Below are positions 19,675-63,375 of a DNA stretch of 64,000 nucleotides, piece after piece. Position numbers and translations under genes: made by a program. This DNA comes from a virus: IMG/VR virus record IMGVR_UViG_3300001200_000009; one strand, given 5' to 3'. A model generated the notes under the pieces. It was not told the DNA's origin and did not search any database. It was given only the letters and a program-made list of their open reading frames with translations. Each line of letters starts with the position of its first letter. The first letter of the stretch is position 1.

Positions 19675-19740
19675 ATTGCGTAATCATACACTCACAACTA
19701 TTCATGTGTGAGCCAGGGTGAATCTCGCAGCCGGAGTGTA
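19675..19740. ncRNA. Repeated structured RNA candidate, copy 1
   Basis: ATTGCGTAATCATACACT..AGGGTGAATCTCGCA..GGAGTGTA shared with 63301-63375. Confidence 0.6.
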
Positions 19741-19753
19741 CGAATCACCAGTG

Positions 19754-20059
19754 CTAAGTGGTTGATTTAGTGTAACTTTTCCATGACGCTAAAAGATGTT
19801 GACGAACTGAGCTAATAGAATCATTAACGATATCAGTCGCCGCTCTTAAGTCAAGGTCAGTTTCATCACCATATTCTGCTGTGTACGTGATATTAGAGTC
19901 AATAGGATAACCGTCTTTTACCAATATCATTTTGATTTCTCGCTTAACAGTCTTCTCAAATGTGTTGGTGGTTTCATAAACTCTTGAAATGCTCACTAAA
20001 GTTTGCAGGTCTATACACGCTATAGAGTCTTCATCGTAATCCCAAATTTGCTCGGCCAT
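19754..20059 (-). CDS. Hypothetical protein
   Basis: ORF coupled to its neighbour. Confidence 0.6.
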   Translation of the reverse strand: MAEQIWDYDEDSIACIDLQTLVSISRVYETTNTFEKTVKREIKMILVKDGYPIDSNITYTAEYGDETDLDLRAATDIVNDSISSVRQHLLASWKSYTKSTT

Positions 20060-20445
20060 TAGAATAAATTCCCAAAGTTTTCGGCGTTGGTTGTTGGAAC
20101 ATCCGGCAAATACTCTTTACAGAAGTCTCTAAGCATATCCCAGTCTACCCAACGAGAGGTAGGTTCGGCAAATAGAATTTTCTTGCCATTGATTTGAGCC
20201 GTCCAAAATGTGAACATTACGATTCGACCCTTCTTAGGTTTCCCAATATAGCCAAGGCATCGGCCTATTCCGCTATTGTTGGACTTCCAATCGTAACCGA
20301 ATTCCTTGGTGCATGTTAACCAAAGAGCGCTCTTCTCGTATGACGTAGTTTCACAGACTCCTTCAACGCCCTCCAAAAATCTTTTGAAGTTGATTTCGTC
20401 TTGTTCTGCGTATGCAGCCGCGAGACTCATGTCTTTAGAATACAA
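20059..20445 (-). CDS. Hypothetical protein
   Basis: ORF in operon. Confidence 0.6.
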   Translation of the reverse strand: MYSKDMSLAAAYAEQDEINFKRFLEGVEGVCETTSYEKSALWLTCTKEFGYDWKSNNSGIGRCLGYIGKPKKGRIVMFTFWTAQINGKKILFAEPTSRWVDWDMLRDFCKEYLPDVPTTNAENFGNLF

Positions 20446-20678
20446 GCAGCACCGACGATTTCAATGAATTCGCCTGACTTGTCTACAAATTGAACGCCAG
20501 CCGGAAGAGCTTCGACCATTCCAGTTGATTGACCCTTATAGATGAGTTCGCCGCCAGAGTAGCATTCAACGGTTCGACTATCACCAAAGGAACCAAAGTT
20601 CGCGCGAGTCGTGTCCGTACAGGCTGATACGGATAGAGCGGCTAGAATAGCCAAGCCTGTCAATAGTTGAGTTTTCAT
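20427..20678 (-). CDS. Putative lipoprotein
   Basis: Lipobox-like SVSAC. Confidence 0.7.
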   Translation of the reverse strand: MKTQLLTGLAILAALSVSACTDTTRANFGSFGDSRTVECYSGGELIYKGQSTGMVEALPAGVQFVDKSGEFIEIVGAACILKT

Positions 20679-20958
20679 AATGTAGTCCTTCTTTGGTTGG
20701 TGGTATTATTCTGAGACTAGTTCTTCTTCTAGTCCTTTGAAATCTTGTGGTAGAATGTCGTGTTCATAGTCTTCTACATGGATAGAGTGTGTGGCACTTC
20801 CGCCATCAGATGAGGTGTTGATGACTGTTTTTGAAATGAACCATCCATTAACAGTGCGTATAACAAGTGTGGTGGATGTATATCCATATCCGCGTTTTTT
20901 GAATAGCCATCTCATGATGTTGCTCCACTTTTAGAATTATATACTTATAAATAACTTC

Positions 20959-21576
20959 ATGAGCATAATATACCAAACTACTAATAATGTAAACAACAAA
21001 ATTTATATAGGCGTCCACAGTGGAAATGACCCATCTTATTTGGGTTCAGGAAAATTGCTAAAACAAGCTATTAGAAAATATGGCAAAGCTGCGTTTACAC
21101 GAACAGTTCTCTATGAATTCGATACAATTGAACAGGCATTCGCTAAAGAGGCTGAAATAGTCAATGAAAATTTCATAGCCAGAGACGATGTTTATAACAT
21201 AATGCCAGGCGGAAAAGGAATGGTTGCTGGACCTCTAAATCCTAATTATGGCAAAAGGCAGTCAGCTGACTGGATAGCGCGTAGAACTGCTTGCCATAAA
21301 AATAAAGTAGTAACCGAAAGGCAAAAGCAAAAACAATCTCTTGCCATGACCGGCAAAATAAGAAGCAAAAAGTCTAGAGCAAAACAAAGTTCTTCGATAT
21401 CAGGAAAACATCACTGGAATTATGGCCAAACACACTCCGAAGACACTTTAAAAAAGATGAGGGCTTCAGCATTAAGACAAAAGAAAATCACCTGTCCTCA
21501 CTGTAAGAAAACAGGTGATAAAGCAAATATGAAGAGATGGCACTTTGATAATTGTAAGTCTATTTTTCGACCTTGA
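20959..21576 (+). CDS. Free-standing GIY-YIG homing endonuclease
   Basis: IIYQTTN..KIYIG, YLGSG, CPHC; TATAAATA 20946-20953. Confidence 0.9.
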   Translation: MSIIYQTTNNVNNKIYIGVHSGNDPSYLGSGKLLKQAIRKYGKAAFTRTVLYEFDTIEQAFAKEAEIVNENFIARDDVYNIMPGGKGMVAGPLNPNYGKRQSADWIARRTACHKNKVVTERQKQKQSLAMTGKIRSKKSRAKQSSSISGKHHWNYGQTHSEDTLKKMRASALRQKKITCPHCKKTGDKANMKRWHFDNCKSIFRP

Positions 21577-22660
21577 GTATCAAATAATGTGGCGCGAAGC
21601 GGAATGAGCATTCGCCGGCCTTGGTTGTCAGAGCTTTCCAAGCCTTATCGCGACTGATGGATGAGCCCTTCGTAAATTTGCCAACATCTTGCTCTGGCTT
21701 CCGAAGCTTTTTCTTCTCGCCTTTGGCAACATTGATAAGCGATGCACCTTTCGCAGAGAAGCCACCAGCTTTAGCCGTGAAGCACATGATTTCGCGATAT
21801 TTGGTACTATACACCCAGATTTTTGGTGCACCGACGATTTCGACAGGGTGAAGGCTTCGTAGCTTAAGGTCTTTGTCTTCCGCCTGAAAGCGAATTGACT
21901 TGACGACTTTATCAGCAGCTGGAGCCTTTTTTGCTCGCTTGGTTCGGTTTGCGGCTTTTTTGGCGGTCGACTCGAAGACGATGTCGTTGTAAATCTCATG
22001 CATAATGGTGTAGTAACCTTTATGGTTCTTGATATGAGAATATCCTTCGCGAAGGTCCGCAGTTTTCTTGAACACCAGCTCATGAAGCTCGTCGATAAGA
22101 GGTTTGAGCTCTGATACAAGAGTCTTCATGTCATCGTCTGAAAGACCATGACGAGCCTTTAGGCTTTTGGCAGAAAATCCATGTTTGCCGCGTTTTTCGA
22201 TGCAGCGCCATTGTAGCTCTTCAATTTCGTCGGAGGCAAGTTGCATTGCAGCTTCATGTTTTGCAGCTTTTTGACGAGCCGAACGGGCTTTTTCTTCATC
22301 TGAAGCCGAAACTTTTTGATGCTTCGGAGCGTATTTGAGAAATTCAGCGCGAAGAGCTCTGAAGTGGTCCATTGAATGGGTTGGGAAAACACATTTGCGA
22401 GTTAGTTGGCGACAATATTGTCCAAAGGCTGGAACGACATAGTTCTTATCCATCTTTTCGATGAGCGCAAGAACTGCAGTATCGTTTTCGTCTTTTGCCC
22501 ACTTCTTGACCCACTTGACGATGTTGTCCATTGAGAGATGATAAGCATACCACGAACGGGCCCAACGACGCGCTTGAGGATTTTCAATATAATTCGTACC
22601 TACGGGGACTTCGTCGCCATAGCCTTGTTTGTCAAGGATTTTGTTTGATTTTTTAGCCAT
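21560..22660 (-). CDS. Basic hypothetical protein
   Basis: 366-aa Lys-rich ORF. Confidence 0.75.
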   Translation of the reverse strand: MAKKSNKILDKQGYGDEVPVGTNYIENPQARRWARSWYAYHLSMDNIVKWVKKWAKDENDTAVLALIEKMDKNYVVPAFGQYCRQLTRKCVFPTHSMDHFRALRAEFLKYAPKHQKVSASDEEKARSARQKAAKHEAAMQLASDEIEELQWRCIEKRGKHGFSAKSLKARHGLSDDDMKTLVSELKPLIDELHELVFKKTADLREGYSHIKNHKGYYTIMHEIYNDIVFESTAKKAANRTKRAKKAPAADKVVKSIRFQAEDKDLKLRSLHPVEIVGAPKIWVYSTKYREIMCFTAKAGGFSAKGASLINVAKGEKKKLRKPEQDVGKFTKGSSISRDKAWKALTTKAGECSFRFAPHYLILKVEK

Positions 22661-23015
22661 TATTTTGTCTCCATAAGGTCTGCTAGAGTAAAATGTTCGC
22701 CATTACCAAAAGGCCGAATTTTAGTTTCTGGGTCCGTTAGAATGACATAGTTAGACATAAAGATAGCTATGTAACCATAAGAGCATTTCCATACACACGC
22801 ATAGCGAACTTTAGAGTCAGGAATGACTAATGCTCCAATAGGTTCACTACTTGTAGCAATCTTTTCGATTTCTTCTTCAGTAATATTCATTGTAAATCTC
22901 CATTTTACATATCTAGTCTATACTATTTTATCGCGTTTGTAAACATAAAAATGCACCCCGACGAAAATAAATTCATCGAGGCGCACGAGCGCTTTAATGG
23001 AGATTTATGCGCACT

Positions 23016-23678
23016 CTATTCGGGAGTTTCAGTAAGCAATTGAGCATTGCCTGTTGGTTCACCAAAAGCTTCGGTAAGAACCTTACGACCTTTAAGTTCT
23101 TTTATCGCCATTTTAGACTTAGTGTCTACACCAACCACTCGAGCCATATCATTACCATCAACAAGGATTATATCGCCTTTGTCGACCTCGCCCTCTTTAG
23201 AGATATATGAATATTTGCTGCTGTTTCGGTCAGTAACAAATTTGATGTCAACAGTATATGGTACGACTTCAGTTAAATCGGCAGATTCAAAAAAGACGAT
23301 TTCACCGGTTCCGCTGATTTCAAAAACGACTTTACCTTCGCGGTTTAGTCCGATTTTGGTACCAACTCTAGGCTTGTCTTCGTTGGTTTGAAATAGTGTT
23401 TTAGTCATAGTAGTCTCCGTTGTGTATTCTTGATAATTGTTTCTTTGAATGCCTAGATTTTCTCTTAAGAGAACATTAAGGCCTTCTTTTTGAGTTCTGT
23501 TCAATGGGCCAGTAAATGGTTTGAACGCGTTAACCGGTCGGTGTTGGATATTTTTAGTGGTACAATATTTTCCATAAAGCCAACCACCGCTACCACGTCC
23601 ATTTATCTCTAAAACTAGAATCGGTGATTTACCACCAACTCTGCGAACTAAGTCACCGACCTTGAATTGTGTCGCCAT
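23016..23678 (-). CDS. Hypothetical protein
   Basis: 220-aa ORF, FKVGDLV start. Confidence 0.7.
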   Translation of the reverse strand: MATQFKVGDLVRRVGGKSPILVLEINGRGSGGWLYGKYCTTKNIQHRPVNAFKPFTGPLNRTQKEGLNVLLRENLGIQRNNYQEYTTETTMTKTLFQTNEDKPRVGTKIGLNREGKVVFEISGTGEIVFFESADLTEVVPYTVDIKFVTDRNSSKYSYISKEGEVDKGDIILVDGNDMARVVGVDTKSKMAIKELKGRKVLTEAFGEPTGNAQLLTETPE

Positions 23679-24700
23679 TAAGTTTTCCTTAAGTCAATTA
23701 CTTTAACGAAGTCAAAGCCATCCCCGTTTAGAGCATGTTTCTTTGACGCATTAAAGGTGTTGTGATGCTTCGTAATGATAGCCTCAGATGTGCGCCCAGG
23801 TTCACTAAGTTTTGGACCTTTGTGGAAGCTATCAATCTTGTCAATCAGAGGACGGTCAATAATGACGTATTCGACATCGACATTACCATCTTCAGCTCCG
23901 ATTGACTTTAAGATACCAACACGGTCAGCGCGCTTAATATTCGTGGCGTCATAGATAACATCTAATCCACCCGCAATATGAGCCTTAGCAATGTTAGTCG
24001 CGGTCAAATGAGTCGAACGAATTCCAGAATGAGTGTACGCTTGACGGTCACACCATTCGGTTTCAGAAGGATATTGAGCTTGGCGAATTTCGTCAGTTGA
24101 CACTCGAGTACCTCCACGAGCGCCATTTAATTGATACCACAACGTTTTACCAGCTCCCGAAGGACCAATCAACATAGTCAACTTTGGTTTACGAGGAGCA
24201 GTAGCTTTTGGCTTATCGAAATCTCCTGGAGCGATTTGAGCGCAAACAACTCCATTACGTCTCCACATGTCAACGACCTTTTGACGGTCATCGAAAATCA
24301 TGTCAGGTTGGACATCTTCAGCATCCAACCATTGGCGCTTAAGAATATCGTCTGGAATGTAATTGCCTTGTGGACGCATATTGACCAAGAATTTATTCAT
24401 ATCATGACGAACATCTCCGCCAATTCCGCCTTCAGAAGCGTAATCTAGCAATGGAAGAATATGAAGTTTCATCCATTCGATTGTCATATCATAGGAAATA
24501 GCCGAAGCGCCGCTCCAAATTTCTACACGGTGGCCAGCATTTACAAGGTCAGCAAAAACTTGAATGACTGGCCAGACTGGTTCGTCCTTATCACAAGACA
24601 AGAAGAACTTATCCCATTGATTGGCTCCATCAGCCACAAGAGGACGACGATGCGTGATGTCACGAAGAGTTCCATCTAAATCAAAAACGTAATAGCTCAT
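23678..24700 (-). CDS. Polynucleotide 3'-phosphatase / 5'-kinase (PseT-like, phosphatase first)
   Basis: FDLDGTL and MIFDDR (HAD), then LIGPSGAGKT and DATN (P-loop kinase). Confidence 0.85.
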   Translation of the reverse strand: MSYYVFDLDGTLRDITHRRPLVADGANQWDKFFLSCDKDEPVWPVIQVFADLVNAGHRVEIWSGASAISYDMTIEWMKLHILPLLDYASEGGIGGDVRHDMNKFLVNMRPQGNYIPDDILKRQWLDAEDVQPDMIFDDRQKVVDMWRRNGVVCAQIAPGDFDKPKATAPRKPKLTMLIGPSGAGKTLWYQLNGARGGTRVSTDEIRQAQYPSETEWCDRQAYTHSGIRSTHLTATNIAKAHIAGGLDVIYDATNIKRADRVGILKSIGAEDGNVDVEYVIIDRPLIDKIDSFHKGPKLSEPGRTSEAIITKHHNTFNASKKHALNGDGFDFVKVIDLRKT

Positions 24701-24799
24701 TTGAATTCCTTATTTCTATTCTTTATATACTATTGGGTAGCAGAGTAAACGATAAAATTCACTTTTAATGAATTATTTTTGAGTATTCACTTTTAATGA

Positions 24800-25342
24800 C
24801 TACCACTTAGTTTCAGTTGGACCAAGATGAGTCATGTCGATAGTCTCATACTTATCCCGTATCCAATCACGCTTTTCTTTGTTTGTTAAAGCGTTAAATA
24901 TCTCTACGTCTGGTCCAGAAATACCAACAATTTCTTTATCTCTATAAAGAGTGTCACCTAAATACAAGAAGTCTTTATCAGAAAAATTGACCTTAAAGGT
25001 TTCAACAGCTGGACCGGCAATATCCTTCTTATCGAAGAATCGACCAGTTAATTGACCCTTTTCGAAATCTCGAAATCTATGGTCATGCTCCTTTTTATTG
25101 AGCAAAGCCGCTTGACGAGCAGTAAGTTCGTATTGAACATCAATATTTTCCGGTGTATACAATGATGTAGAACTTATAGAACTTACTGTACCACGCTTAG
25201 CACTCATGTAGTTAACATGCTTCGAACAGACTTCAAGTTTAGCATACCAATGTTCAGCCTCGACTGAAAATCCCATAAATGTCGATATTTTTAATCTTAC
25301 AGCCCAAGGACCCTTAACTTCGATAGCATCTAAATCTATCAT
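24800..25342 (-). CDS. Hypothetical protein
   Basis: 180-aa ORF, GGAG SD. Confidence 0.65.
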   Translation of the reverse strand: MIDLDAIEVKGPWAVRLKISTFMGFSVEAEHWYAKLEVCSKHVNYMSAKRGTVSSISSTSLYTPENIDVQYELTARQAALLNKKEHDHRFRDFEKGQLTGRFFDKKDIAGPAVETFKVNFSDKDFLYLGDTLYRDKEIVGISGPDVEIFNALTNKEKRDWIRDKYETIDMTHLGPTETKW

Positions 25343-25577
25343 TGTGAATTCTCCATGTCGTCGATAGCTTTTTGAAGAGCTACGCCTTCAGAACTTGTAC
25401 TTACGAATTCGCAATCATGCCGCTCTGGGTCATCGCTAAAAAAGCCGCACTCTTTTAATAGCTCTTTTGCGGCTTTAAGAAGGGCTTGTGTTTTGGCTTC
25501 ATTTGTCATAATAATCTCCAAGTGTATCATGTATTGAACAACTGGGTGCTCTAATGTTCAATACATGATACATATTT

Positions 25578-26231
25578 CTAGTTAACGAGGTACACGAGAC
25601 CTTGCTTAACATCATAGTCGCAATCAGCTTGTGTGTAAGCCGTGTTCTTGAGAACGAACTCAAGAGTTGGTGAGCGACCTTTTTTCTTACGCGGCTCGCA
25701 GAAGTCATAAGCCTCTTGACGACGGTCATATTTTGGACCGCTTCGACCAGTTGGACGACGACGAAATACGATGCGATTTCCACCAGCATCCGCAACTTCT
25801 GGTGCGTTAAGAATTTCGTGTAAGGAATGGACGAATGCTTTTGTCTTACCGCGACGTGAGTTAACGTCGATGATGACTCCATCACGCATTACAAAGGCGT
25901 GAGATTCGATTGTGACAAAGAAGGTTCCAACCGGATATTCATCGCGAATATTGGCAAGAGTTTTACCTTTACGGCGGTAGGATTCGACCATATCGCCCGT
26001 AATACGACATTTACGTTCGCATTTGACGTGTTCCATCGGGACTTTAACTTCTTTGAGCTGAAGTCCGAGGTCTTGAGCGGCTTGGGTCCATTTATAGTTG
26101 GCCATGCCTTTGTTGTCGACATAACCATTAGCGTCGAACGCTTTGAAAATGTCTTCATCAGGAAGTTGGGTAATAAGCTGAACTGCAACGAGCGTGCAAT
26201 TCTTTTTCATTGATTTGATAGTTCGTTTCAT
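25578..26231 (-). CDS. Hypothetical protein
   Basis: Start MKRTIK after ATGGAGATT; early promoter 26278-26283. Confidence 0.7.
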   Translation of the reverse strand: MKRTIKSMKKNCTLVAVQLITQLPDEDIFKAFDANGYVDNKGMANYKWTQAAQDLGLQLKEVKVPMEHVKCERKCRITGDMVESYRRKGKTLANIRDEYPVGTFFVTIESHAFVMRDGVIIDVNSRRGKTKAFVHSLHEILNAPEVADAGGNRIVFRRRPTGRSGPKYDRRQEAYDFCEPRKKKGRSPTLEFVLKNTAYTQADCDYDVKQGLVYLVN

Positions 26232-26825
26232 AATAATCTCCATTTAATAAGGAGACTATATACTATCCGGCAGAAATGTAAACAGCTAAATTCAATTTAA
26301 TTTGTCGAGAATCCACATGGCAACTTCAAGTGCATGCTCTTTGTTTTTTAGAATTTTGTTTGCGCATAATCTTCGAGATTCATTTTCTACTAGAAGGCCT
26401 CGAACCTCAAACATTTCTGGAGGCTCCCCGCCTGCATGGCCTTCTTCAAATACTTTGTTAAGATTACCAAAATACGTGTCATTGTCAGACTTAGAAGTCA
26501 TGTGAGCTGCTCTAGAATCCATGATGCAAGAGCAAGGGCCTCTTCAGGGCGGTCTTTAACTTCGCTCTGAGAAATAGAGAATATGGCACCATTAAATGTT
26601 TCTTCCGCAAGCATTAACTCATGGTTCGGATATTCTTCAATCCATGGAGCCCATATAGGAAGTTCGGCAGCCTTTTCGTTTATTACATCTATGGTCGACT
26701 TGTCTTCTTCGTCTTCATCCCAAGTAGTCGTTATTCCGGCATCTTCCATGTATTGTTTAACTGTAGACATATCGATAGTACCGCGATTCTGCATGTCTAC
26801 CAATTGTCTTAATTTATCGAGGTCA

Positions 26826-27266
26826 TCATTTTCCATCGAGCTCATTTCTCCAAAATTCTTTTATATCTAATCGAGCTGCAGCGCAAAGAGCCTCAAAGAT
26901 TGGTTCTTTGAGGACTTCTGGCATCTCACCTGTATCGTCCCATATTTCTGCTTGGTCCATCCACCAGTTGATATGCCCAGGAACCGTCCTATAGCAAAAG
27001 GCATCAAAGAAACTTTGAATGTCTCCATGATAGGCCTTATAGCATAATTCTACGGTTTCACGAGTTGTATTTTCTTTGAAGAATCCACGTTCCCATGATT
27101 TTGGCTTATCATGAACGTTGGGATATTTTTCTCGATATTCTTCAAAGGACATAGGCTCATAAAAATAGTTGTGTATTTCTTCTGAATAATATCGCACAAA
27201 CCCATCGTCTAATCGGTCTTGAACTCTAGCTCTTATTCTAGGATTAAGCACGCGCTTATTAAACAT
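26826..27266 (-). CDS. Hypothetical protein
   Basis: ORF in operon. Confidence 0.6.
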   Translation of the reverse strand: MFNKRVLNPRIRARVQDRLDDGFVRYYSEEIHNYFYEPMSFEEYREKYPNVHDKPKSWERGFFKENTTRETVELCYKAYHGDIQSFFDAFCYRTVPGHINWWMDQAEIWDDTGEMPEVLKEPIFEALCAAARLDIKEFWRNELDGK

Positions 27267-27714
27267 GCTTCACACGAATTTCATCAGGTATGTATTCGTC
27301 CCATGGAGTATAGTTTAAGTCAAAATCGTAATAACCCCAATCTCCGTCGGATTCTCCAAAGAAGAACCAAGTCCAACACCATGGACTCCAATATTCTACT
27401 CGATGAATTACAGATTTATCCATCGTAAATGTTTGACCAAATCTATGGGTGATAGACCTAGAATGAGATTTCCAAATATCAGGCCAAGCGCTCTTATAAA
27501 GACGCTGTTCTCTATAGCTTCCGGTTAATACGAAACTTCGCATAGTTTTCCATCTATGCTTATGAAACATACCTAGCGGTTCCGGTTTTAAGAAATGGTG
27601 GAGGTATGAATTCTTTGTGACTCGTATTTGCTGAAGTAGAATTCCACCGTCCATAGCGGGAATTTCACGACATCTATCAGGAAAGAGTTTTTCAACTAGA
27701 CTGTAAAAGCTCAT
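27259..27714 (-). CDS. Cupin-like hypothetical protein
   Basis: HKH..W..SFVLTGSYRE, IHRV..WTWFFFG. Confidence 0.55.
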   Translation of the reverse strand: MSFYSLVEKLFPDRCREIPAMDGGILLQQIRVTKNSYLHHFLKPEPLGMFHKHRWKTMRSFVLTGSYREQRLYKSAWPDIWKSHSRSITHRFGQTFTMDKSVIHRVEYWSPWCWTWFFFGESDGDWGYYDFDLNYTPWDEYIPDEIRVKHV

Positions 27715-28073
27715 AATCTTCTCTTGGCACGATTACAACTTCCATTGTTTGGAGCTTATAATCTTTGAAGCGGTTGAATTGTGAATTTATATTGGCCTTA
27801 GCTCCTTGCAAAGAGAATATCTTTGCCGACTCTAGAAATATTGTGAACACATTCTTTGACTTGCTAAGGTAAAATCTTTTGCCACTAGCATCATTGTCGT
27901 AATATATGACACAATTACTCAATTGATTTTATGCTTCTCTATTCGCCAGCCTTCACTACTAGGCTTACCTCTAATATAGTCTTCAGCGTCTTTTTTCTTT
28001 TTAAATGTAGTGATATGCACAGCATAATCATAATATCGGTTTGGGTTACCGTAAACCATAAACATCTTTGCCA

Positions 28074-43838: not shown

Positions 43839-44426
43839 TCATAATTTTCTTCCTTTGAACCAACCATTCGGAATATCGCCTTTCCACTTCTTGGCCTTAA
43901 TTCCATTGTTAATCCAAATAGTTCCAAATTGAGAATTTTTGGAACCCTGATTTTTTGATTTTCTTAATTTTTCTTTTGTCTCTTCACGATGTTGGCGTCC
44001 TGTCCAACCGTTATTTTTAGTCAAAGGCATTTTACCTTCTTCCCAAGTTTTCTTTAATCTATTCGAACTGGCTTTACGTTTTAAATCTGTTGAATTAGCT
44101 GCTAAAGCCCCTAGACTATGCCCGCTTAAACCGTTTTGGTTGATATAGCCCCAACCCCCTTTACCTCCTGGACAAAGATTATAGGTGTGGTTACTTTTAC
44201 AATATTCTTCTGTTACAAGCTGAGCTTCCTTGGTGTTCATGTCTTCTTCAGAATTCAACTTGTATAAAATCGTCTTCTCGAAATTTTCTATTCCATGCTT
44301 CTTAATTGCTCGCTTTATTAGTTTACCCGAGCCCATATATCCATCATCAAGGTCTTGTGTTTGATGCTTACCTATGTAAACTTTGCCATTGATTTTATTC
44401 TTGATTCTGTAGATAATGTAGTAAAT
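43839..44426 (-). CDS. GIY-YIG homing endonuclease, paralog of 8259-8885, probable ATT start
   Basis: YYIIYRIKNKINGKVYIGKH..YMGSG upstream of the called Met; GGAG 6 nt before ATT. Confidence 0.82.
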   Translation of the reverse strand: MYYIIYRIKNKINGKVYIGKHQTQDLDDGYMGSGKLIKRAIKKHGIENFEKTILYKLNSEEDMNTKEAQLVTEEYCKSNHTYNLCPGGKGGWGYINQNGLSGHSLGALAANSTDLKRKASSNRLKKTWEEGKMPLTKNNGWTGRQHREETKEKLRKSKNQGSKNSQFGTIWINNGIKAKKWKGDIPNGWFKGRKL

Positions 44427-44430
44427 TATA

Positions 44431-44485
44431 GTCTCCAGATTATAAACTAGTCTTATTGTCTGCTAGTATTTATAATCTGGAGACT
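44431..44485 (-). promoter_or_regulatory. RBS-sequestering hairpin with TATAAATA, near-identical to 8890-8945
   Basis: GTCTCCAGATTATAAA..CTAG / CTAG..TTTATAATCTGGAGAC. Confidence 0.8.
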
Positions 44486-44490
44486 CTATG

Positions 44491-47666: not shown

Positions 47667-47762
47667 GAGACAAATCCTAAAGCTGGAGCTTTAATATGTG
47701 GGCATCGAGTTTGACGTCGTAGCCCACGGACGTGTTAGAAGTAAGCGTTTAGATAGCGTCTC
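47667..47762 (-). ncRNA. GCUAU/GAUUU motif RNA, copy C
   Basis: GAGAC/GTCTC, GCTAT/GATTT loop, CTAAA/TTTAG, CGCTTACTTCTA. Confidence 0.7.
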
Positions 47763-47770
47763 TATGGGGG

Positions 47771-47962: not shown

Positions 47963-47964
47963 GA

Positions 47965-50139: not shown

Positions 50140-50162
50140 GATAATCTCCATCATAATATTAA

Positions 50163-50230
50163 AGCGTCAAATCCTAAAACTGAGTTTTTTCAGAATAAAA
50201 GTTAGAAGGAAGTGTTTAGATAGCGACGCT
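50163..50230 (-). ncRNA. GCUAU/GAUUU motif RNA, copy D (5' leader of the TerD-like gene)
   Basis: AGCGTC/GACGCT, GCTAT/GATTT, CTAAA/TTTAG; early promoter 50271-50276. Confidence 0.7.
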
Positions 50231-50294
50231 ATTCTGTATTTGAGATTATAATATCATACCGGTCTGGCATGTAAACGATTAAATTCATTTTTGG

Positions 50295-55386: not shown

Positions 55387-55388
55387 TA

Positions 55389-56459
55389 TTACTCCAAAAA
55401 TGCAGAAAGGTCATTTGCTTTAGGCTCACCTGTCCAATAAGGATATGCAGCACGCGCTAAATGAACGCTTCTTGGTTTTTCCATATATTCGAAGGACAAT
55501 TCCTTCTTCTCATTGATATAGTGTTCCCATGGATTCACAAACTTTATCCGTGGGTTATTCGCTGCGGCATTCTCAAGCGCTTGGTTGAAAACGTCTTTAA
55601 TATGATTTCGTTCTTCCCATGTGCCCCAATATGGTTCACCTTCGTAATAGCCAGATTTAGGCAATTTACGGGATACGTCTTCAATAGGAAGAGCTGCAAT
55701 GAGTGTTACATTGCAATCTTGTTCTTCGATAATTTGAGCCGCTAGTTTTGCATAGGCTTGAGTCAGCTTTAAAGTCTTGACTGTTCGTTCGTCTTTCGAC
55801 TTCGTATCTCGAGCTAAGTGGTGCCGAATGTCGATATTGCCAAAATAGAGTTCAACTTCTTGGATAGGCGCACATGATTTTTCACGATACTCTTTGACAA
55901 GCTCGGACAAATTCTTTGAATTGTCCTTCATAGAACCAAATAGAGTACGGAATGGAACTTGCCATACAGTCCAACCAGGTCGATAGAGAGATATTGAGTG
56001 CGAATCACCAAGGACCAGTTTGTTCTTTGCGAATGGGGTCCAAGGCTCGGGAATGGTTTTCATTGTTCGAATAGACTCCCAATTTTCATAGTCTATTCCA
56101 GCAAGGTTGGGATGATTTTGGTCGCCTTTGGCGCGGTCTAATAATTGACCGACATAGTCAGGCATCTTCATCTCAAGAGAGATGATATTGTCAGGGTCGC
56201 AACGCGACAAAGAGGCTATTGAATGGGGTTTAAAGGCGGTAATCCCGCCGAATAAATTAAGTCCTCCGCTATAATCGCCATGATAAACAACAACAAGGTC
56301 ATATTCTGTTAACTCCAGTTTTGAGCCCACATCGATGTCGACTTGCGCTTCAGGATAACCCTCACGAAAAACTTCAGCATAAATGTAGGCCTTTGCAGAA
56401 CGATGAGAATAAGGTGATTTGGTAATGCCCTGCATAGGGGCGGTAACTACGATTTTCAT
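55389..56459 (-). CDS. Unknown 356-aa enzyme in the T4 beta-gt position (SGNH-like C-half)
   Basis: VLGDSH, YFGNID, terminal SVH; directly upstream of uvsX. Confidence 0.55.
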   Translation of the reverse strand: MKIVVTAPMQGITKSPYSHRSAKAYIYAEVFREGYPEAQVDIDVGSKLELTEYDLVVVYHGDYSGGLNLFGGITAFKPHSIASLSRCDPDNIISLEMKMPDYVGQLLDRAKGDQNHPNLAGIDYENWESIRTMKTIPEPWTPFAKNKLVLGDSHSISLYRPGWTVWQVPFRTLFGSMKDNSKNLSELVKEYREKSCAPIQEVELYFGNIDIRHHLARDTKSKDERTVKTLKLTQAYAKLAAQIIEEQDCNVTLIAALPIEDVSRKLPKSGYYEGEPYWGTWEERNHIKDVFNQALENAAANNPRIKFVNPWEHYINEKKELSFEYMEKPRSVHLARAAYPYWTGEPKANDLSAFLE

Positions 56460-56959
56460 TTGGCTAAAATGTACTCCATAATAAATTTGACGCCATCGTT
56501 ATCGCCAGTCGTTTCTTGGAACTCATAGTCACCAAGCATATTGCGGATGTCGTCGTCAAGTTTCTTAGACTGTTCTTCGTCATGAACCCGTCCATAGGTA
56601 GCAAACGGCTTGGTACGATTCAAAAAGAAGTTGATGTTATCAGAAGAGCGGGCTTGGAAATCTCCATGAATCGCTCTTCTGAGGATGATATTGTCCGTGT
56701 ATGCCGCGCAAAGGAGGGTTGGACAATCGGTGATGATGTAATCGACTTTGCCGATAAGACGCTGAATTCTCCATGTTTGAACACCCCACACATATGAAGG
56801 ACATTTGAGCGCTTCAGGATTGGAGTATGCAAGGTCCTTCGCGAATTCGGTTACGAGTTCACATTGTTCTGCATGGTCTTTAAAGGAGGCGAATAATTTA
56901 GAAGCAGTAGTCGATTTGCCAGCCCCAGGGCCAGCGAATAGGTTGATTATTTTCGTCAT
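56456..56959 (-). CDS. P-loop kinase (NadR/AAA_28-like)
   Basis: FAGPGAGKST, EFAK, ITDCP. Confidence 0.75.
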   Translation of the reverse strand: MTKIINLFAGPGAGKSTTASKLFASFKDHAEQCELVTEFAKDLAYSNPEALKCPSYVWGVQTWRIQRLIGKVDYIITDCPTLLCAAYTDNIILRRAIHGDFQARSSDNINFFLNRTKPFATYGRVHDEEQSKKLDDDIRNMLGDYEFQETTGDNDGVKFIMEYILAK

Positions 56960-56997
56960 TGATATATTATAACATCTCTGTTTGTGGAAGTAAACGC

Positions 56998-57357
56998 TTA
57001 TTTTTGAATGTGGCGATTATTTTCAATCTCGTTCTTAATCCACTTAGCATCGCCGTCGTGGTCAACGCTAACGATTTCCTTAAAGCCTGTCATAAGGATG
57101 TGAATTTCAGCCTTGTCTGGAAAGTAGAAATAACCAGATTGGGTGATAATCATATCACCGTTTTCGAAAGCCTCAACATAGGTTTCCCAGAAATCATCGT
57201 AGGTCGATTTCATTTCTTCACGGTTTTCGCATTCAAAAACCGGTTTGTTGTCGACGAGCTTAAAGGTAATCTTATGGCTTTTCAAGCGATTGCCAAAGGG
57301 CTTCTTCTTATTGACGATAAACCAGTCTTGGCTAAGAAGGATTCTATCCTGGGTTGG
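56998..57357 (-). CDS. Hypothetical protein
   Basis: Probable start MPTQDR. Confidence 0.55.
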   Translation of the reverse strand, partial: PTQDRILLSQDWFIVNKKKPFGNRLKSHKITFKLVDNKPVFECENREEMKSTYDDFWETYVEAFENGDMIITQSGYFYFPDKAEIHILMTGFKEIVSVDHDGDAKWIKNEIENNRHIQK

Positions 57358-58108
57358 CATTATATCTCTTACGTTGGCGCTCTTTCCAGTCATCTGGGAC
57401 TTCTTCCTCTTCGTTATCTCCAATTCGCCAATCAAACATCGCATCGTCAACGTCGTTGTGAGGAGGACTATAAAATTGACCCAGTCCTCTTGGTTCTACG
57501 CTAAACACCGTTGGAATATTTATGGTCTTGGGGATAAATGGATGTCTATAAGGATGTGCATGCTCTGGATGTCCGCAAGCATTACAAATAGCAGTAGGCG
57601 TAGACGCTGGAGATTTAAGAGTCTCTTTAAAGCTTTCAACGAATTCATCTATCGTAGATTGGTCTGGCGTTTCGGCATATTCAGTCATGATGACTCCACC
57701 ATATTCAAAGATTTTTTCAGACTTTCGCTGAGACTCTTCCCATCTAGGGTCATCATGAATATCCATAAAGACGACATGCTCAACACCCGCGTTCACGAGT
57801 TTTCCAGCGCATGAAGAGCAAGGAGCTAGCCCATAAATATAGACAGTCGAACCTTCAAGCGATACACCATTTTTGGCAGCATTGATGATTACGTTTTCTT
57901 CGGCATGAATAATGTGAACATACTTGACTTCACGATTATCGAGATATTCAGCTGTATCGGGCAATCCTTTCGGAAGTCCATTATATCCTTGTGCCAGAAT
58001 ACGACGGTCTTTTACAGCAACCGCTCCAATTTGTTTTGAAGGGTCTTTAGACCAAGTTGAGATGAGTTCGGCCATCTCCATAAACCGTATGTCCCATTTG
58101 TTAAGCAA
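57344..58108 (-). CDS. dCMP deaminase with C-terminal extension
   Basis: SKDPS, GYNG, HAEEN, APCSSC. Confidence 0.88.
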   Translation of the reverse strand: MLNKWDIRFMEMAELISTWSKDPSKQIGAVAVKDRRILAQGYNGLPKGLPDTAEYLDNREVKYVHIIHAEENVIINAAKNGVSLEGSTVYIYGLAPCSSCAGKLVNAGVEHVVFMDIHDDPRWEESQRKSEKIFEYGGVIMTEYAETPDQSTIDEFVESFKETLKSPASTPTAICNACGHPEHAHPYRHPFIPKTINIPTVFSVEPRGLGQFYSPPHNDVDDAMFDWRIGDNEEEEVPDDWKERQRKRYNANPG

Positions 58109-58496
58109 CTCGTACTCTCCCGTTTGTTAGTGTTGTGTGACCAAGTTTTTCGGTCCATTCGCGCCATGTGTCAATCCATGGACCTCTAAAGGATAAGACC
58201 CAGCTTGACCCGATTGAACGAACCTTATGCATCTTTTCTCTTGGTGTATAGATAGGTTTCCAAGATGGTCTATATCTCCGTTCAAATCTGGGAAATTTGA
58301 AATCCTCTTCCATCAACGAATGGCCTTTGAGATACCAAGAGATGGCATTAAAGGCGTGGGTATGAAATGCTTCTCTAGACCCGTGATGAAAATTCAGAAG
58401 CACAATCGAAAATGCTGGTTTCAGCTCGATTAGGAAATATCCATCAACACACGAATCTTTACCGCCGTCTTTTGCTTTCTGAAAAAATCTAGCCAT
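58101..58496 (-). CDS. Cupin-like hypothetical protein
   Basis: FHTHAF..MHKV..SWVLSFRGP. Confidence 0.6.
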   Translation of the reverse strand: MARFFQKAKDGGKDSCVDGYFLIELKPAFSIVLLNFHHGSREAFHTHAFNAISWYLKGHSLMEEDFKFPRFERRYRPSWKPIYTPREKMHKVRSIGSSWVLSFRGPWIDTWREWTEKLGHTTLTNGRVRVA

Positions 58497-58702
58497 TAAA
58501 CCGCAGCTCTTACGAAGCAGTCTTTTGCTTCAAGAAGTTTTTGAAGACCTAGGGCAGCTTGTTCGGCTTGAGCGCCAGAAGAGCCCTTGAAATTACTATA
58601 CATCCGATTAGCAAGTTCGCCAAAAGGCTGGCTAATAGTCTTAAGATGCGGTGGAAGATGTTCATAAGCGAAAAATTCTATTGGTGTTGTTAGCGTAGCC
58701 AT
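58496..58702 (-). CDS. Small helical protein (FxYxHLP..KLLEAKD..VRA)
   Basis: Start MATLTT, coupled to the gp42-like gene. Confidence 0.7.
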   Translation of the reverse strand: MATLTTPIEFFAYEHLPPHLKTISQPFGELANRMYSNFKGSSGAQAEQAALGLQKLLEAKDCFVRAAV

Positions 58703-59358
58703 TAAGCTTCCTTTACTAAATTGAAGTGGCGTTCGTAGACATGAAGGGAACCGACTTGCCAAAAGATTTCTCCTTGTTCGACTCCAAGGTCAGCGCAAAG
58801 GTCTTTATGAACATGGTCTGCCCATGCAAAGTCGTTTTTATATCCGAAAATGGCGTCATTTGACCGCATTTGAACAATAGCATCGAGGCTTTGCCCATTC
58901 CATAGATATTGATGAGCATTGGTGCAAACAAAATCATTCATGCCGTTTTCAAAAGCATCGACATGCATGGTTGGTCTTTGATAAATCATAATCGCCCGAC
59001 GAGAGTCGATATTGTCTTCAAGGGCATTTAGCGCTGCCGTGTACTGGTGTCCGTTCTCTTTAGAGTAAATACACCATCCGTAATTTGAATTGATTTTGCC
59101 GTCTTTATCCGCAACGCTCTCCCAAATTGCTGGTGTTTTACCTGGAATATCGGCGACTTGTCTAGATTTGGACAGATACCATTGGAGTTCTCGTTCGATA
59201 TATTCATTGGGCTTCCCGAAGATTGTGTTTTCATCAGCAATAAATGAGGCGCCTGGAATTTCAAGCATCTTACAGCCAGTTTTATCTGTCTTAAATTGCT
59301 CATCTTCTAGCATAGCTATAAACGTATCGCGAATGTTATGTACTGATGGCTTAAACAT
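58702..59358 (-). CDS. Thymidylate-synthase-fold dCMP hydroxymethylase/hydroxylase (T4 gp42-like)
   Basis: NSNYG, SRRAI, VCT, MRSNDAIFGYKND (Asp at the TS Asn177 position), GSLHVYERH. Confidence 0.8.
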   Translation of the reverse strand: MFKPSVHNIRDTFIAMLEDEQFKTDKTGCKMLEIPGASFIADENTIFGKPNEYIERELQWYLSKSRQVADIPGKTPAIWESVADKDGKINSNYGWCIYSKENGHQYTAALNALEDNIDSRRAIMIYQRPTMHVDAFENGMNDFVCTNAHQYLWNGQSLDAIVQMRSNDAIFGYKNDFAWADHVHKDLCADLGVEQGEIFWQVGSLHVYERHFNLVKEA

Positions 59359-59938
59359 TGGTGAACTCCACAAACTTTGCGACTTCAACATAAAGGTCTT
59401 CGAGCGACCCATTGTTGTCTATGAAATATCCAGCATAGGTCTTTGGAATATCGAAACTGGATTTCGGTTCGAGCTCATGGCGGTCAGAAGCATCGACCCA
59501 TACGATGTAATCAAATAATCCTTGCTTGATACACTCTTGAAGTTCAGCAAGTCGTCTCATTCCGCAATAGATGTCTCCACCGCGTAGAACGTTTTTAGCG
59601 TGCGCGCAAGGGTCGTCTTTGTTAAATGTTGCGATGGCTTCGAACCAAGTTGGGCGATGCCTGCCGCGGTCTTCGAAGCAGTCCATCGCAGACTTATAGC
59701 CTTCGTTTGGAAGATAATTTTTCCAAATCCATTCAGCAATTAGAATGCTAGAAGGATTAAATGCGAAGTCGTGCTTGTCTCTAAGAATTTCGCTGACTGT
59801 ATCTTTACCATGTCGGGCATGGCCAAGGATTAGAATTTTGGGTTTTGAAGAGCGTTCGTCATAAACGATATGCTCCGGATAATCGGTTGGGACATCAATT
59901 GTCAATCGCTCAACCGTAAGCGTTGTGTAGTCTATCAT
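59351..59938 (-). CDS. Deoxynucleoside monophosphate kinase-like
   Basis: ILGHARHGKDTV, GMRR..E, IDNNGSLEDL; early promoter 59991-59996. Confidence 0.75.
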   Translation of the reverse strand: MIDYTTLTVERLTIDVPTDYPEHIVYDERSSKPKILILGHARHGKDTVSEILRDKHDFAFNPSSILIAEWIWKNYLPNEGYKSAMDCFEDRGRHRPTWFEAIATFNKDDPCAHAKNVLRGGDIYCGMRRLAELQECIKQGLFDYIVWVDASDRHELEPKSSFDIPKTYAGYFIDNNGSLEDLYVEVAKFVEFTNV

Positions 59939-60063
59939 TAGAACCTTAATATTGGGGTATAGACCTATTATATCATTTTTCGTTAGTGATGTAAACATAT
60001 AAATAAAAATGCGTCCACGATGTGCAACCATCCGACGCTCTAATACTAAAGGGAGTAATCAGC

Positions 60064-60525
60064 ATGGTTATTTATACCGTCTACAAGACCACCAATCTCA
60101 TCAATAATAAAACCTATATCGGTGTTCATAAAACAATGGACCCTAATGACTCGTATTTAGGGTCCGGCGAAGCTATCAAAGCTGCAATAAAGAAATATGG
60201 AAGACATAATTTCTCTAAAGAAGTTTTGTTCTCGTTCGATAATTCTGCCGATATGTTGGCCAAAGAGGCCGAGTTGGTAGAAATCAATGAGAATACATAT
60301 AACCTAATCAAAGGCGGCGGAAGTTATAGCGAAACTTCCTATAAAATTACTGAATCACATCGTAAAAATCTTTCTAAAAGTCTAACCGGTAGAAAGCTCT
60401 CAGAAGAGACTAAAGCTAAAATGAGGGCTTCAGCTGGTCATAGAAGAGGTAAGAAGAATTCTATTGAACACAATCTTAAAATTTCTAAGACCTTAAAAGA
60501 GAAGGCAAAGCATTCCAATTTTTAG
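60064..60525 (+). CDS. Free-standing GIY-YIG homing endonuclease
   Basis: YTVYKTTN..TYIG, YLGSG, NUMOD3; TATAAATA 59998-60005. Confidence 0.9.
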   Translation: MVIYTVYKTTNLINNKTYIGVHKTMDPNDSYLGSGEAIKAAIKKYGRHNFSKEVLFSFDNSADMLAKEAELVEINENTYNLIKGGGSYSETSYKITESHRKNLSKSLTGRKLSEETKAKMRASAGHRRGKKNSIEHNLKISKTLKEKAKHSNF

Positions 60526-61033
60526 CTGTTGGATGAAATGAAGTTAAGACCTTGGCAATCGTTGAGTTATCCAATATTCCGTATTGCTGCACTTGTGTAA
60601 ACGAGTAATTTAAGACACTGCCGTAAGCGGTTTCTTTCAGTTGAAACATTCGTCTCTGGTCTTGGGGTACTTCGTATACCCTTATTGTCGATTGGTCTGA
60701 GGCAGGAACCCGAACGATGATTAGCCTATCTACCGATGTAATTTTACGCTCTTGACTGGCTTCGATTGAATAGACTCTTTCCTTCATGAATGGGAAAATA
60801 GTCTTGACCTCGTAAGTTTGCCCTTGGACTGTGCCGTCTTTTTCAGAGTCCCACCAATCTTCGGTCATTTGGACATCGCCATCATATTCATGCCAAAGCA
60901 TTTCAAAGGCGATTGCCTCTCCAATAATACCTTGTTTAAGAATGTCGCCCTTACGACCCGTGGGCTTAACTTCCTGTAAAGCTCGGGTTAATTCTTTTAG
61001 TGTCTCATCGCGGACAGTCGTAAGCTTAATCAT
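60485..61033 (-). CDS. Putative PD-(D/E)xK nuclease
   Basis: GIIGEAIA..KDG..YEVKT. Confidence 0.5.
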   Translation of the reverse strand: MIKLTTVRDETLKELTRALQEVKPTGRKGDILKQGIIGEAIAFEMLWHEYDGDVQMTEDWWDSEKDGTVQGQTYEVKTIFPFMKERVYSIEASQERKITSVDRLIIVRVPASDQSTIRVYEVPQDQRRMFQLKETAYGSVLNYSFTQVQQYGILDNSTIAKVLTSFHPTAKNWNALPSLLRS

Positions 61034-61424
61034 TATTAAGGAAGCTCAAATCGATTTCATCTTCGTCAAAATCTCCAGATTCTACTCTAGCTTGGGCTCT
61101 TTCTCTAGCTTTTCTAAGAACTGTCATCTCAGAGCTAATGCTCATCAAAGCTTTGAGGTGAACTTCGGTCACCTTATGCCTATATGATTTCGCGATTTTG
61201 GTGTGTATAAACATATGGCAAAACTTGCAAAGCGTCACTCCATTGCTTACTGTAAATCTAAGAAGAGGATGATATTTGGCGCTTCGAATATGATGGGCTT
61301 CGCGTGTCTGTCGGTCTCCACAGCATTTACATACTCCGTCTCGACGGATAACGTAAATTTTCCAAAGCCTATAAGCCTTAGTTCTGCGCCAGTGTTTAGT
61401 TATAGGGGGAAGAGTGATAGTCAT
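61026..61424 (-). CDS. HNH endonuclease
   Basis: CKCC, EAHHI..SNGVTLCKFCH. Confidence 0.85.
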   Translation of the reverse strand: MTITLPPITKHWRRTKAYRLWKIYVIRRDGVCKCCGDRQTREAHHIRSAKYHPLLRFTVSNGVTLCKFCHMFIHTKIAKSYRHKVTEVHLKALMSISSEMTVLRKARERAQARVESGDFDEDEIDLSFLNND

Positions 61425-62353
61425 TACATATTGCCGTATACGAATTCGAGTGCTCGATTCGCTTCTTTAATTATTGGTCTTGTTTTGAACCGATTTTTCT
61501 GATAACGCTGGTCAATTTGGCGGACCAGAGTTTCGAGTTCTTCAGCAGTAATCGGATAGCCCTTTTTGACCGCAATGCCGGCGATTGAACACATCAACTG
61601 GAATAAGAATCGGTAACGTCCATCATTGAGCGCTGCATATTCCATCACCAATTCTTCGCGTACGAACGGACAGTCACGATAGTCTGTCCATTGGAACGTT
61701 TTAGTAAGAGTAGCTTTACGCTGATTGAGAATTTCTTCTTTCAGCTGTGGCGGTAGATTGTCAAAAAAGTTAGATGCGGTTGGAGTATATTCGTGACGAC
61801 TCATTAACTCTTTAGGGTCTAAGATTGGACCTTTATTTGTGAAGATGAAATTGTAGGCGTCTGGATATTGACCTGGAATGTAATACATCCGTGAAAGGTC
61901 TTTTGTCGATTCGTCTCCTTCTCCCAAATACTCTTGATTGAGTGCGAACCAAAAATGACTGATGTCATCACGATGGACAGGTTCGGTAAGAGGAAATACT
62001 AGTCTGAATTTAGGATGTTCTTTGGTTGAAGAAGCAGTTGAATAGCAGACGTAGTAGTTGTCTTGAATTCCTGCTATGAGCTCGTCGTATGAGCATTCAT
62101 AGTCATCAACATCGAGCGCGGCCCAACTACACCATTCCATGACATTACGATTTGCTCGAGTAGTCCCTTCCTCATAGGATGCAGGACTTATTAGAGGAGC
62201 ATCGCCCTTTGAAGGCTTCTCGCCCTTTGGAGTTTTGCGGGTCCTCTTCTTATGAAGGGAATAGAGTAAATCCTCGAGTCCTTGAAAGTCCTCAAAGAGC
62301 ATGGTCTTATGCGTCTTATTGTCGAAGATGTTTTTGAATATGGTGAGTTGCAT
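61424..62353 (-). CDS. Primase-polymerase (AEP)-like protein
   Basis: LISPA, ALDVDD, YSTASS..PKFRLVFPL. Confidence 0.7.
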   Translation of the reverse strand: MQLTIFKNIFDNKTHKTMLFEDFQGLEDLLYSLHKKRTRKTPKGEKPSKGDAPLISPASYEEGTTRANRNVMEWCSWAALDVDDYECSYDELIAGIQDNYYVCYSTASSTKEHPKFRLVFPLTEPVHRDDISHFWFALNQEYLGEGDESTKDLSRMYYIPGQYPDAYNFIFTNKGPILDPKELMSRHEYTPTASNFFDNLPPQLKEEILNQRKATLTKTFQWTDYRDCPFVREELVMEYAALNDGRYRFLFQLMCSIAGIAVKKGYPITAEELETLVRQIDQRYQKNRFKTRPIIKEANRALEFVYGNM

Positions 62354-62602
62354 TGAAGTCCAAAAAGGCTAGGTCCGAAGACCTAGCAAGTTTAAGGGGA
62401 GAATGTGCAAAATCGACTTCCGCACTTGTATATTATAATCTATTTCGAATGGAATGTAAATACGAAAAATCCTCCTAATCAAATGAATTAGGAGGACTTA
62501 ACGGAGGATAACCAATGGAGATGATTTCCTCAAGGCCACCTTACGGCGACTCCACCATCCGACTTTTGGGAGATAAGAGGTGTCGGAGGACCTCTATTTT
62601 GA

Positions 62603-62734
62603 AGAGTCAAATCACGCTGCTAAAAAGGCGCTCTACCACTGAGCTATCCTCCCATAAAGGTGGGAGGAGTGGGATTCGAACCCACGACCCGCTGCTCCGA
62701 ATGCAATAGAAGTAAGCGAACATATAGCGACTCT
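62603..62734 (-). ncRNA. GCUAU/GAUUU motif RNA, copy B, with permuted tRNA module (62628-62692)
   Basis: AGAGTC/GACTCT; T arm, TCCTCCC-loop-GGGAGGA, D arm. Confidence 0.8.
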
Positions 62735-62741
62735 ATTTTAA

Positions 62742-62880
62742 AGGACTAAATCATACAGCTAAAAAGGCTCGGTGCGTTTACCATTTCGCCACCCTCCGCA
62801 TGGTTAGCCGAGGGGCAGGACTCGAACCTGCAAATACCGAGTTTGACAATATTAGAAGTAAACGTGTATATAGCAATCCT
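62742..62880 (-). ncRNA. GCUAU/GAUUU motif RNA, copy A, with permuted tRNA module (62768-62841)
   Basis: AGGATT/AGTCCT; CTCGG, T arm, CCCTCGG-loop-CGGAGGG, D arm, CCGAG. Confidence 0.8.
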
Positions 62881-63064
62881 ATTCTTTATATCCTAAATAA
62901 ACTTTAGCATGCCATTCGATAAATTCTTCGATTTCATTGCCGCTTTTGATGAATGTTTGAAGCTCATCATAGTCCCAGAATTCACCTAAAGTTTCAGGAA
63001 TAGTAAACTCATTATCTCTCATAAGAGTCAAAAAAGCTTTAAATCTTTCTGTTTTGATAGCCAT
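62879..63064 (-). CDS. Hypothetical protein
   Basis: Small ORF immediately upstream of copy A. Confidence 0.55.
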   Translation of the reverse strand: MAIKTERFKAFLTLMRDNEFTIPETLGEFWDYDELQTFIKSGNEIEEFIEWHAKVYLGYKE

Positions 63065-63300
63065 TAGAACAAATCCATTTCAGCGAAAAACATGTCGCCA
63101 TGGAATTCAGAAACTTCAAATTCCTTATCAGCTCCCATAAAGTGAACCGTAAATTTGTCACCAACTTTAGTTGCTTGACCCGAAATAATGTCTTTTTGAA
63201 AGAATTTGATAGGCATGTAATATCTCCATTTTACTATTCTAGTATATACTATGGAGCTAGAATGTAAACAACAAAATGCATTTTATTTCTGGAGACATTG

Positions 63301-63375
63301 ATTGCGTAATCATACACTTCAAATAAATCTGCTTAAGCTGAGGGTGAATCTCGCACCCGGATGCATCGGAGTGTA
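63301..63375. ncRNA. Repeated structured RNA candidate, copy 2
   Basis: Same conserved blocks as 19675-19740. Confidence 0.6.

Follow-up and report, generated by a model that had tools for sequence, protein, structure and literature searches.

An uncatalogued two-copy element within a duplicated early-promoter cassette of a T4-like phage

Introduction

Repeated intergenic units built around an early promoter, termed promoter-early stem-loop (PeSL) cassettes, have been described in T4-like phages (PMC2839356, PMC4122927), and recombination between such cassettes is documented in this group (PMC2839356). Small self-cleaving RNAs are likewise found in phages, including hammerhead ribozymes in intergenic regions (PMC3088659) and theta ribozymes (PMC10879173). 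Here, we analyze a ~70-nt element that occurs twice in the 159-kb virus record IMGVR_UViG_3300001200_000009. All positions refer to a 64,000-nt window of this record, that is, the whole stretch of DNA that was analyzed, unless stated otherwise. A first-pass annotation, made from the letters of the window alone, had described two distant copies of a pseudoknot-like RNA motif in 3' untranslated regions (UTRs). We find that the element is real, uncatalogued, and lineage-restricted. Our tentative reading is that it constitutes an orphan, non-catalytic folded RNA module that lies on the sense strand at the 3' ends of early messages and was copied together with a promoter cassette; the broader proposition of a structured RNA with some function is one that we consider somewhat favored.

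Results

Three invariant blocks occur twice between a stop codon and an early promoter

The two copies have three blocks of 18, 15, and 8 nt in common, which match at all 41 positions (Table 1). The blocks had been placed at 19675-19740 and 63301-63375 by the first-pass annotation, and both locations held up: the pair was recovered by self-BLAST (E = 9e-17), and an independent Logan assembly was identical at each locus over 1.5 kb. Shuffled genomes contained no repeated 18-mers, and a chance origin of the repeat is excluded. The element is present in exactly two copies in the 159-kb genome, in which relaxed patterns and two RNA models revealed no third copy. The genes at both loci lie on the minus strand and the sense RNA is hence the reverse complement of the letters given, meaning that the blocks had originally been written on the non-transcribed strand. 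Both upstream genes stop at TAG, 13 nt (copy 1) and 18 nt (copy 2) before the first block, and an early promoter begins 40 nt and 31 nt, respectively, after the last block. Both copies are thus located in 3' UTRs, after unrelated genes, as had been proposed. A terminator-like hairpin is found 3 nt downstream of copy 1 and none at copy 2. The cassettes differ in length at three places, by 9 nt each time: on either side of the 8-nt block and ahead of the -35 box. No common reading frame accounts for these differences. Stop-codon read-through was ruled out, with a second stop two codons past the TAG at copy 1 and no shared open reading frame (ORF) on either strand.

The element was copied together with its promoter cassette

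Homology between the two loci is not restricted to the element. Self-BLAST aligned spacer, promoter, and ribosome-binding site with 74% identity over 156 columns, so that the repeated unit corresponds to the entire ~190-nt intergenic cassette, and weak homology continues about 25-55 nt further upstream (upstream 60 nt, P = 0.03). Among 44 promoter-like sites, the two downstream early promoters form the closest pair (85% identity; next pair, 74%; median, 47%), and only these 2 of the 44 carry the element. In copy 1, the -10 box is weaker by one base and scored below the cut-off of the promoter scanner. This pattern indicates that both copies derive from one duplication or conversion of the whole intergenic cassette and are therefore not independent witnesses. 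Both copies are real, as the first-pass annotation had held, but the duplication of the whole cassette had been overlooked.

Sequence identity is concentrated in the blocks

Identity is unevenly distributed along the cassette: complete in the blocks (41/41), it amounts to 11/23 in the segment between two of them and to 19/41 in the spacer to the -35 box. When matches were shuffled along the alignment, two identical runs of 18 and 15 were recovered with P = 0.0028, a test that presumes independent changes. The blocks are also kept better than the constrained promoter region, which differs at 15% of positions. Selective constraint on the blocks is therefore likely on the basis of this comparison, although the same pattern could arise by a few block events at near-palindromes or by patchy gene conversion.

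The latter possibility leads to an explanation without any function, in which the element would be an unselected relic of the promoter-cassette duplication. Following a recent duplication or gene conversion, the variable parts would have been rewritten by few block events, such as template switching at near-palindromes and 9-nt indels, and the helices would be due to chance. Indeed, homology spans the entire cassette, and no two promoters of the genome are more alike than those of its two copies (85% vs a median of 47%). The differences are grouped at hairpins or palindromes that only one copy has, about 5% of shuffles yield crossed helices (see below), no homologue was found, and cassette recombination has precedent in T4-like phages (PMC2839356). 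However, the blocks exceed even the neighboring functional promoter in conservation (41/41 vs 85%), the clustering of matches is significant under independent changes, and it would still have to be explained where 70 nt of non-coding sequence, with a helix of 8-10 bp in both copies, came from. Taken together, we regard an unselected relic as rather doubtful.

A plausible long helix and a candidate pseudoknot

On the sense strand, the 6-bp helix of the first-pass annotation (P1) lengthens to 10 and 8 bp in copies 1 and 2, respectively, with adjoining bases that are not the same in the two copies but pair in each via G.U. The extension pairs turn into A.C mismatches on the opposite strand, while one inner position favors the opposite strand. 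Predicted pair probabilities for P1 were 1.0 and 0.6-0.9 on the sense strand, and on the plus strand the helix appeared in copy 2 only. The 9-nt insertion is located between blocks and leaves P1 unbroken. A common helix of this length was obtained in 3-6% of shuffles of the conserved bases, and the P1 helix thus has modest support.

The strand preference of P1 bears on whether the element might instead act as DNA, with RNA pairing being incidental. In that case, the blocks would be sites for phage or host proteins upstream of two early promoters, such as an activator, repressor, replication, or recombination site. The 18-nt and 15-nt blocks are held at a fixed start-to-start spacing of 38 bp, 40 and 31 bp upstream of the -35 box, the element moves with the promoter, and invariant bases without covariation are a pattern expected of a protein site. 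Arguing in the other direction, the third block shifts by 9 bp between copies and the promoter distance also differs by 9 bp, no single block is palindromic or a direct repeat, the element is confined to 2/44 promoter-like sites, and the G.U extension of P1 forms mainly on the transcribed strand. A DNA site is therefore, in our judgment, improbable.

The second proposed helix (P2) consists of four invariant pairs, UGCG with CGCA, that cross P1, and shows no covariation between the two copies. A long helix together with a crossing 4-bp helix was found in about 5% of shuffles of the conserved bases. Because the folding program cannot model pseudoknots, the zero probability that it returned for P2 is not evidence against this helix. 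As an alternative, the 15-nt block can form a 5-bp hairpin around a loop of 7 nt; this hairpin is perfect in copy 2 and has one C.C mismatch in copy 1. Of the crossing pairings annotated earlier, both complementarities thus exist and do cross, but with four invariant pairs, no covariation, and a competing hairpin, the pseudoknot itself is a possible fold that can be drawn. Likewise, the hairpin annotated in the variable segment of copy 1 can be drawn (6 bp) but is not significant (P = 0.08) and overlaps and competes with the 6-bp helix; the copy 2 segment forms no stable hairpin.

Two mutually exclusive folds of the 15-nt block would also suit a riboswitch or attenuator, whose core would bind a ligand and toggle between pseudoknot and local hairpin in order to control terminator read-through. 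Only 3 nt separate copy 1 from a terminator, whose 5' arm has a possible pairing partner in an upstream 6-mer. In contrast, an aptamer overlapping an expression platform in every copy was not found, as the terminator is restricted to copy 1 and a fresh early promoter directly follows both copies, leaving little to control. No Rfam riboswitch matched even at loose thresholds, and the flanking genes have no pathway in common. We consider such a switch very improbable.

Comparison with known ribozymes and riboswitches

Searches against Rfam 15 returned nothing relevant, either for the complete genome, window included, at the gathering threshold or for each copy at E values up to 10, in agreement with the first-pass annotation, which knew of no matching ribozyme or riboswitch class. 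Intact core words of hammerhead, twister, pistol, hairpin, hepatitis delta virus (HDV), or T-box RNAs were absent from the motif on either strand, the twister, pistol, and hairpin tests being based on core-word patterns and on Rfam models where these exist. A single GAGGG is present in copy 2, on the plus strand only, and is absent from copy 1. Likenesses to T-box, group II domain V, SAH and SAM-II, and type III antitoxin RNAs were dropped, each involving one copy or a few bases only.

The closest class likeness is to type-SGC (non-circularly permuted) hammerheads (HRIMA-1; PMC10085705), which have the same order of crossing strands as the element on its sense strand. The strands of stems I and II are again separated by a short linker, and the 7-nt linker AUGAUUA, containing UGA and a final A, stands where CUGAnGA is expected. 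In this mapping, positions 3 and 8 are altered but still complementary (possible A3-U8 pair), and natural U3-A8 covariation is known from hammerheads (PMC3088659). Unlike the type-SGC set, in which all other critical core positions are reported to be perfectly conserved (PMC10085705), the element does not keep C3, G8, and A14. The CUGAnGA core between stems I and II was found on neither strand, GAGA takes the place of GAAA after the candidate stem II (GAAA matches fall outside the motif), and the bases before stem I give no U16.1 pair for A15.1-U16.1. Hammerhead membership fails because A14 differs and a stem III with a cleavage triplet in register cannot be built.

Within the 15-nt block, a UUCAC stretch resembles the L3 loop of HDV-like ribozymes. 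With its small size and candidate pseudoknot, the element is also reminiscent of the HDV-like and theta ribozymes of phages, which occur in tRNA-rich phage genomes; theta ribozymes require a catalytic C and usually adjoin tRNAs (PMC10879173). Unlike in these ribozymes, no nested double pseudoknot can be drawn on either strand, a 22-nt insert takes the place in which P1 is expected after P3, and no C that would correspond to the catalytic C at the start of J4/2 is present in the linker preceding the final helix strand. Neither copy adjoins a tRNA: about 500 nt lie between copy 2 and the nearest tRNA-like gene, and for copy 1 the distance is several kb.

A self-cleaving ribozyme, representing a new class or a rearranged hammerhead variant, would cut the early transcript just past the stop codon and set the 3' end of the upstream message. 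The element resembles the small ribozymes of phages in size, in its multi-copy intergenic placement behind stop codons, and in having an invariant core with variable loops on both sides. Its helix-strand order on the sense strand is that of type-SGC hammerheads, with the linker AUGAUUA and the possible A3-U8 pair described above. Against this stand the altered C3, G8, and A14, the missing stem III, the linker without an HDV catalytic C, the lack of an intact hammerhead, twister, pistol, hairpin, or HDV core, and the terminator already present 3 nt downstream of copy 1. We therefore deem self-cleavage unlikely.

Searches for homologues and targets

Six exact-pattern scans of IMG/VR, each loosening a different part of the motif, one scan of JGI metagenomes, and two of GTDB revealed no homologues, with match numbers at chance level. 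INPHARED blastn gave no match over 40 nt, and covariance models yielded no true match in related loci or in 46 phage records, most of which had been picked for a related gene. The absence of homologues is weak evidence, because the pattern scans need exact words, such that a family with a slightly altered core would escape them, and because no close relative covers the loci. The motif core words were also not found in the literature searched. Several candidates were rejected: L104 and the L102/L103 group, in which core words and a short P1-like pairing lie inside protein-coding ORFs, and L001/L247, in which 16 nt in common with the motif belong to a hairpin after a capsid-like gene, on the opposite strand and without the other blocks. 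The L247 locus (L247:1513-1640, IMGVR_UViG_3300029705_000082) is from an unrelated phage and contains two strong hairpins between the capsid-like gene and the next gene, its 16-nt overlap with the motif being due to chance.

In searches for antisense targets within the phage genome, the longest match was 9 nt, compared to a chance mean of 9.5, and a match of 8 nt, to a His-type tRNA in its anticodon arm, also fell short of this mean.

Genomic setting

The virus is a T4-like phage with a T4-type major capsid gene. By capsid protein, its top cultured relative has 57% identity, whereas the nearest uncultured relatives (82% and 91%) are represented by short contigs far from the motif; a relative with a neighboring gene at 78% differs in gene context. 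Nearly all genes of the window are on the minus strand. Because the genome contains a permuted two-piece transfer-messenger RNA (tmRNA) gene of alphaproteobacterial type, with a tag ending in AANDNFAFGELARVA (G000:C1:50698-51118, minus strand, outside the window; L208:11145-11527), we infer that the host is a marine alphaproteobacterium. The genes upstream of the two copies, an orphan ORF that closes an early operon and a MazG-like nucleoside triphosphate (NTP) pyrophosphohydrolase gene with its own early promoter, are listed together with the parts of both cassettes in Table 1.

Table 1 Positions of the two motif copies, their predicted parts, and adjoining features in the 64,000-nt window.
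Feature	Position	Strand	Remark
Motif copy 1	19675..19743	-	3' UTR of orphan 101-aa ORF
Copy 1, 8-nt identical block	19733..19740	-	With 19741-19743 gives predicted P1 5' strand (19734-19743)
Copy 1, 15-nt identical block	19715..19729	-	Starts with UGCG (5' strand of proposed 4-bp P2); pyrimidine tract at end
Copy 1, variable 22-nt segment	19691..19714	-	Possible 6-bp hairpin overlapping P1
Copy 1, 18-nt identical block	19675..19692	-	Most of predicted P1 3' strand (19684-19693), short linker, CGCA (proposed P2 3' strand)
Copy 1, intrinsic-terminator-like hairpin, 13 bp, U-rich tail	19642..19671	-	Copy 1 only
Copy 1, early promoter and leader with GGAG ribosome-binding site	19582..19634	-	-35 GTTTAC at 19634-19629; within duplicated cassette
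13-nt stretch, 11 positions identical to 63379-63391	19753..19765	-	Possible 5' extension of duplicated unit; holds stop codon of upstream ORF
Orphan 101-aa ORF upstream of copy 1	19754..20059	-	Last gene of early operon
Motif copy 2	63301..63377	-	3' UTR of NTP pyrophosphohydrolase gene
Copy 2, 8-nt identical block	63368..63375	-	Predicted P1 5' strand, 63370-63377
Copy 2, first variable segment	63356..63367	-	Copy 1 counterpart 9 nt shorter; palindromic insert
Copy 2, 15-nt identical block	63341..63355	-	Alternative 5-bp hairpin with 63354-63358
Copy 2, variable 22-nt segment	63319..63340	-	Length as in copy 1; identity 11/23; without stable hairpin
Copy 2, 18-nt identical block	63301..63318	-	Predicted P1 3' strand, 63311-63318; CGCA at 63303-63306
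Copy 2, early promoter and leader	63217..63269	-	85% identity to copy 1 counterpart
MazG-like NTP pyrophosphohydrolase (PF01503) upstream of copy 2	63394..63828	-	Own early promoter at 63878

Several further features were noted in the same genome. The opening codons of 3 of 13 GIY-YIG endonuclease genes form a consensus early promoter on the opposite strand (window 20959-21000, and about 69449 and -17383 in window numbering), and the antisense promoter at 20993 starts the operon whose end is copy 1. Long hairpins precede two homing-endonuclease genes on the minus strand (window 8860-8949 and 44401-44490), carrying a late promoter (TATAAATA) in the 5' arm and a ribosome-binding site in the 3' arm; this arrangement in opposite hairpin arms is a known T4 design that blocks early translation. 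The genome encodes about 19 tRNA genes. Two of them, at window 9029-9121 and 9207-9297 on the minus strand, were reported by ARAGORN as a tRNA-Leu carrying a 7-nt insert and as a long tRNA whose anticodon is UAU. A four-copy helix with a GCUAU/GAUUU internal loop is fused to rearranged tRNA-like modules in a Y-RNA-like layout (window 62600-62880, 47667-47765, and 50140-50232, minus strand). Kinship of this helix with the two-copy element was rejected, as the two have only one 9-mer in common and copy 1 lacks the partner strand.

Discussion

In the reading that we tentatively prefer, a ~190-nt cassette comprising motif, spacer, early promoter, and ribosome-binding site would have been duplicated or homogenized by recombination in the phage lineage, as PeSLs have elsewhere. 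Transcription of the preceding early message would continue through the upstream part of the cassette, which as the 3' UTR would fold into a small RNA module, most likely a non-catalytic one. P1 (8-10 bp) would close a domain enclosing the invariant 15-nt core, to which the 3' tail may pair back (4 bp), unless the core folds as the 5-bp hairpin instead. A protein or RNA might then recognize the folded 3'-end domain through its invariant unpaired bases, and the recognized domain could stabilize the message end or be freed as a small stable RNA. We favor a folded module because identity is focused on the blocks relative to the spacers, P1 extends in both copies, and the 9-nt insertion spares P1, and because this phage makes other unusual non-coding RNAs, namely the permuted tmRNA and the tRNA-like modules. 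Selective constraint and P1 are together moderately supported by the comparison of the two copies, and the proposal that the first-pass annotation made of a structured 3'-UTR RNA motif is thus partly supported: the element is constrained and uncatalogued and has one plausible long helix.

Several observations weigh against a folded module. The two paralogous copies offer no compensatory changes within either core helix, P1 of copy 2 contains, on the sense strand, a C.A mismatch at one position, and the folding energy of the whole sequence is no better than that of shuffles (z -1.35 to +0.85). Copy 2 has no terminator and would not be a 3'-terminal domain unless processed. Moreover, no partner or target of the element was found in the phage genome, and the lack of homologues beyond the two paralogous copies counts, weakly, in the same direction.

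Small RNAs that represent a new catalytic or ligand-binding class are seldom found. If the element were a ribozyme after all, a marine T4-like phage would cut its early transcripts just after the stop codon with a catalyst of a new class or with a hammerhead-like one whose core has been rewritten. If it were a relic, it would provide a caution that one duplication within one genome can mimic a conserved RNA family. With no homologues from which to assemble a family, its reach is at present a single phage lineage.

Among described systems, the element resembles the orphan phage RNA motifs of Rfam in having short conserved blocks and variable loops in phage intergenic DNA with no assigned function; unlike these families, it has no Rfam 15 match and no covariation support. 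As a whole, the cassette is laid out like PeSLs. It is likewise a repeated intergenic unit that runs from an upstream stop codon through an AT-rich stretch to a sigma-70-type early promoter, followed by a ribosome-binding site and a start codon, and it adjoins orphan genes. With respect to recombination points, two homologous cassettes lie between unrelated genes, and no close relative spans the loci. A terminator-like stem-loop, a 13-bp hairpin with a U tail, is present in copy 1 and absent from copy 2. Described PeSLs consist of a promoter and one stem-loop, and their copies number in the dozens. In the present phage, by comparison, only two cassettes have the 70-nt conserved module, which lies ahead of the promoter part. 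If the module is indeed a non-catalytic folded RNA, T4-type promoter cassettes can bring an RNA module along when they are copied, a feature absent from current PeSL descriptions.

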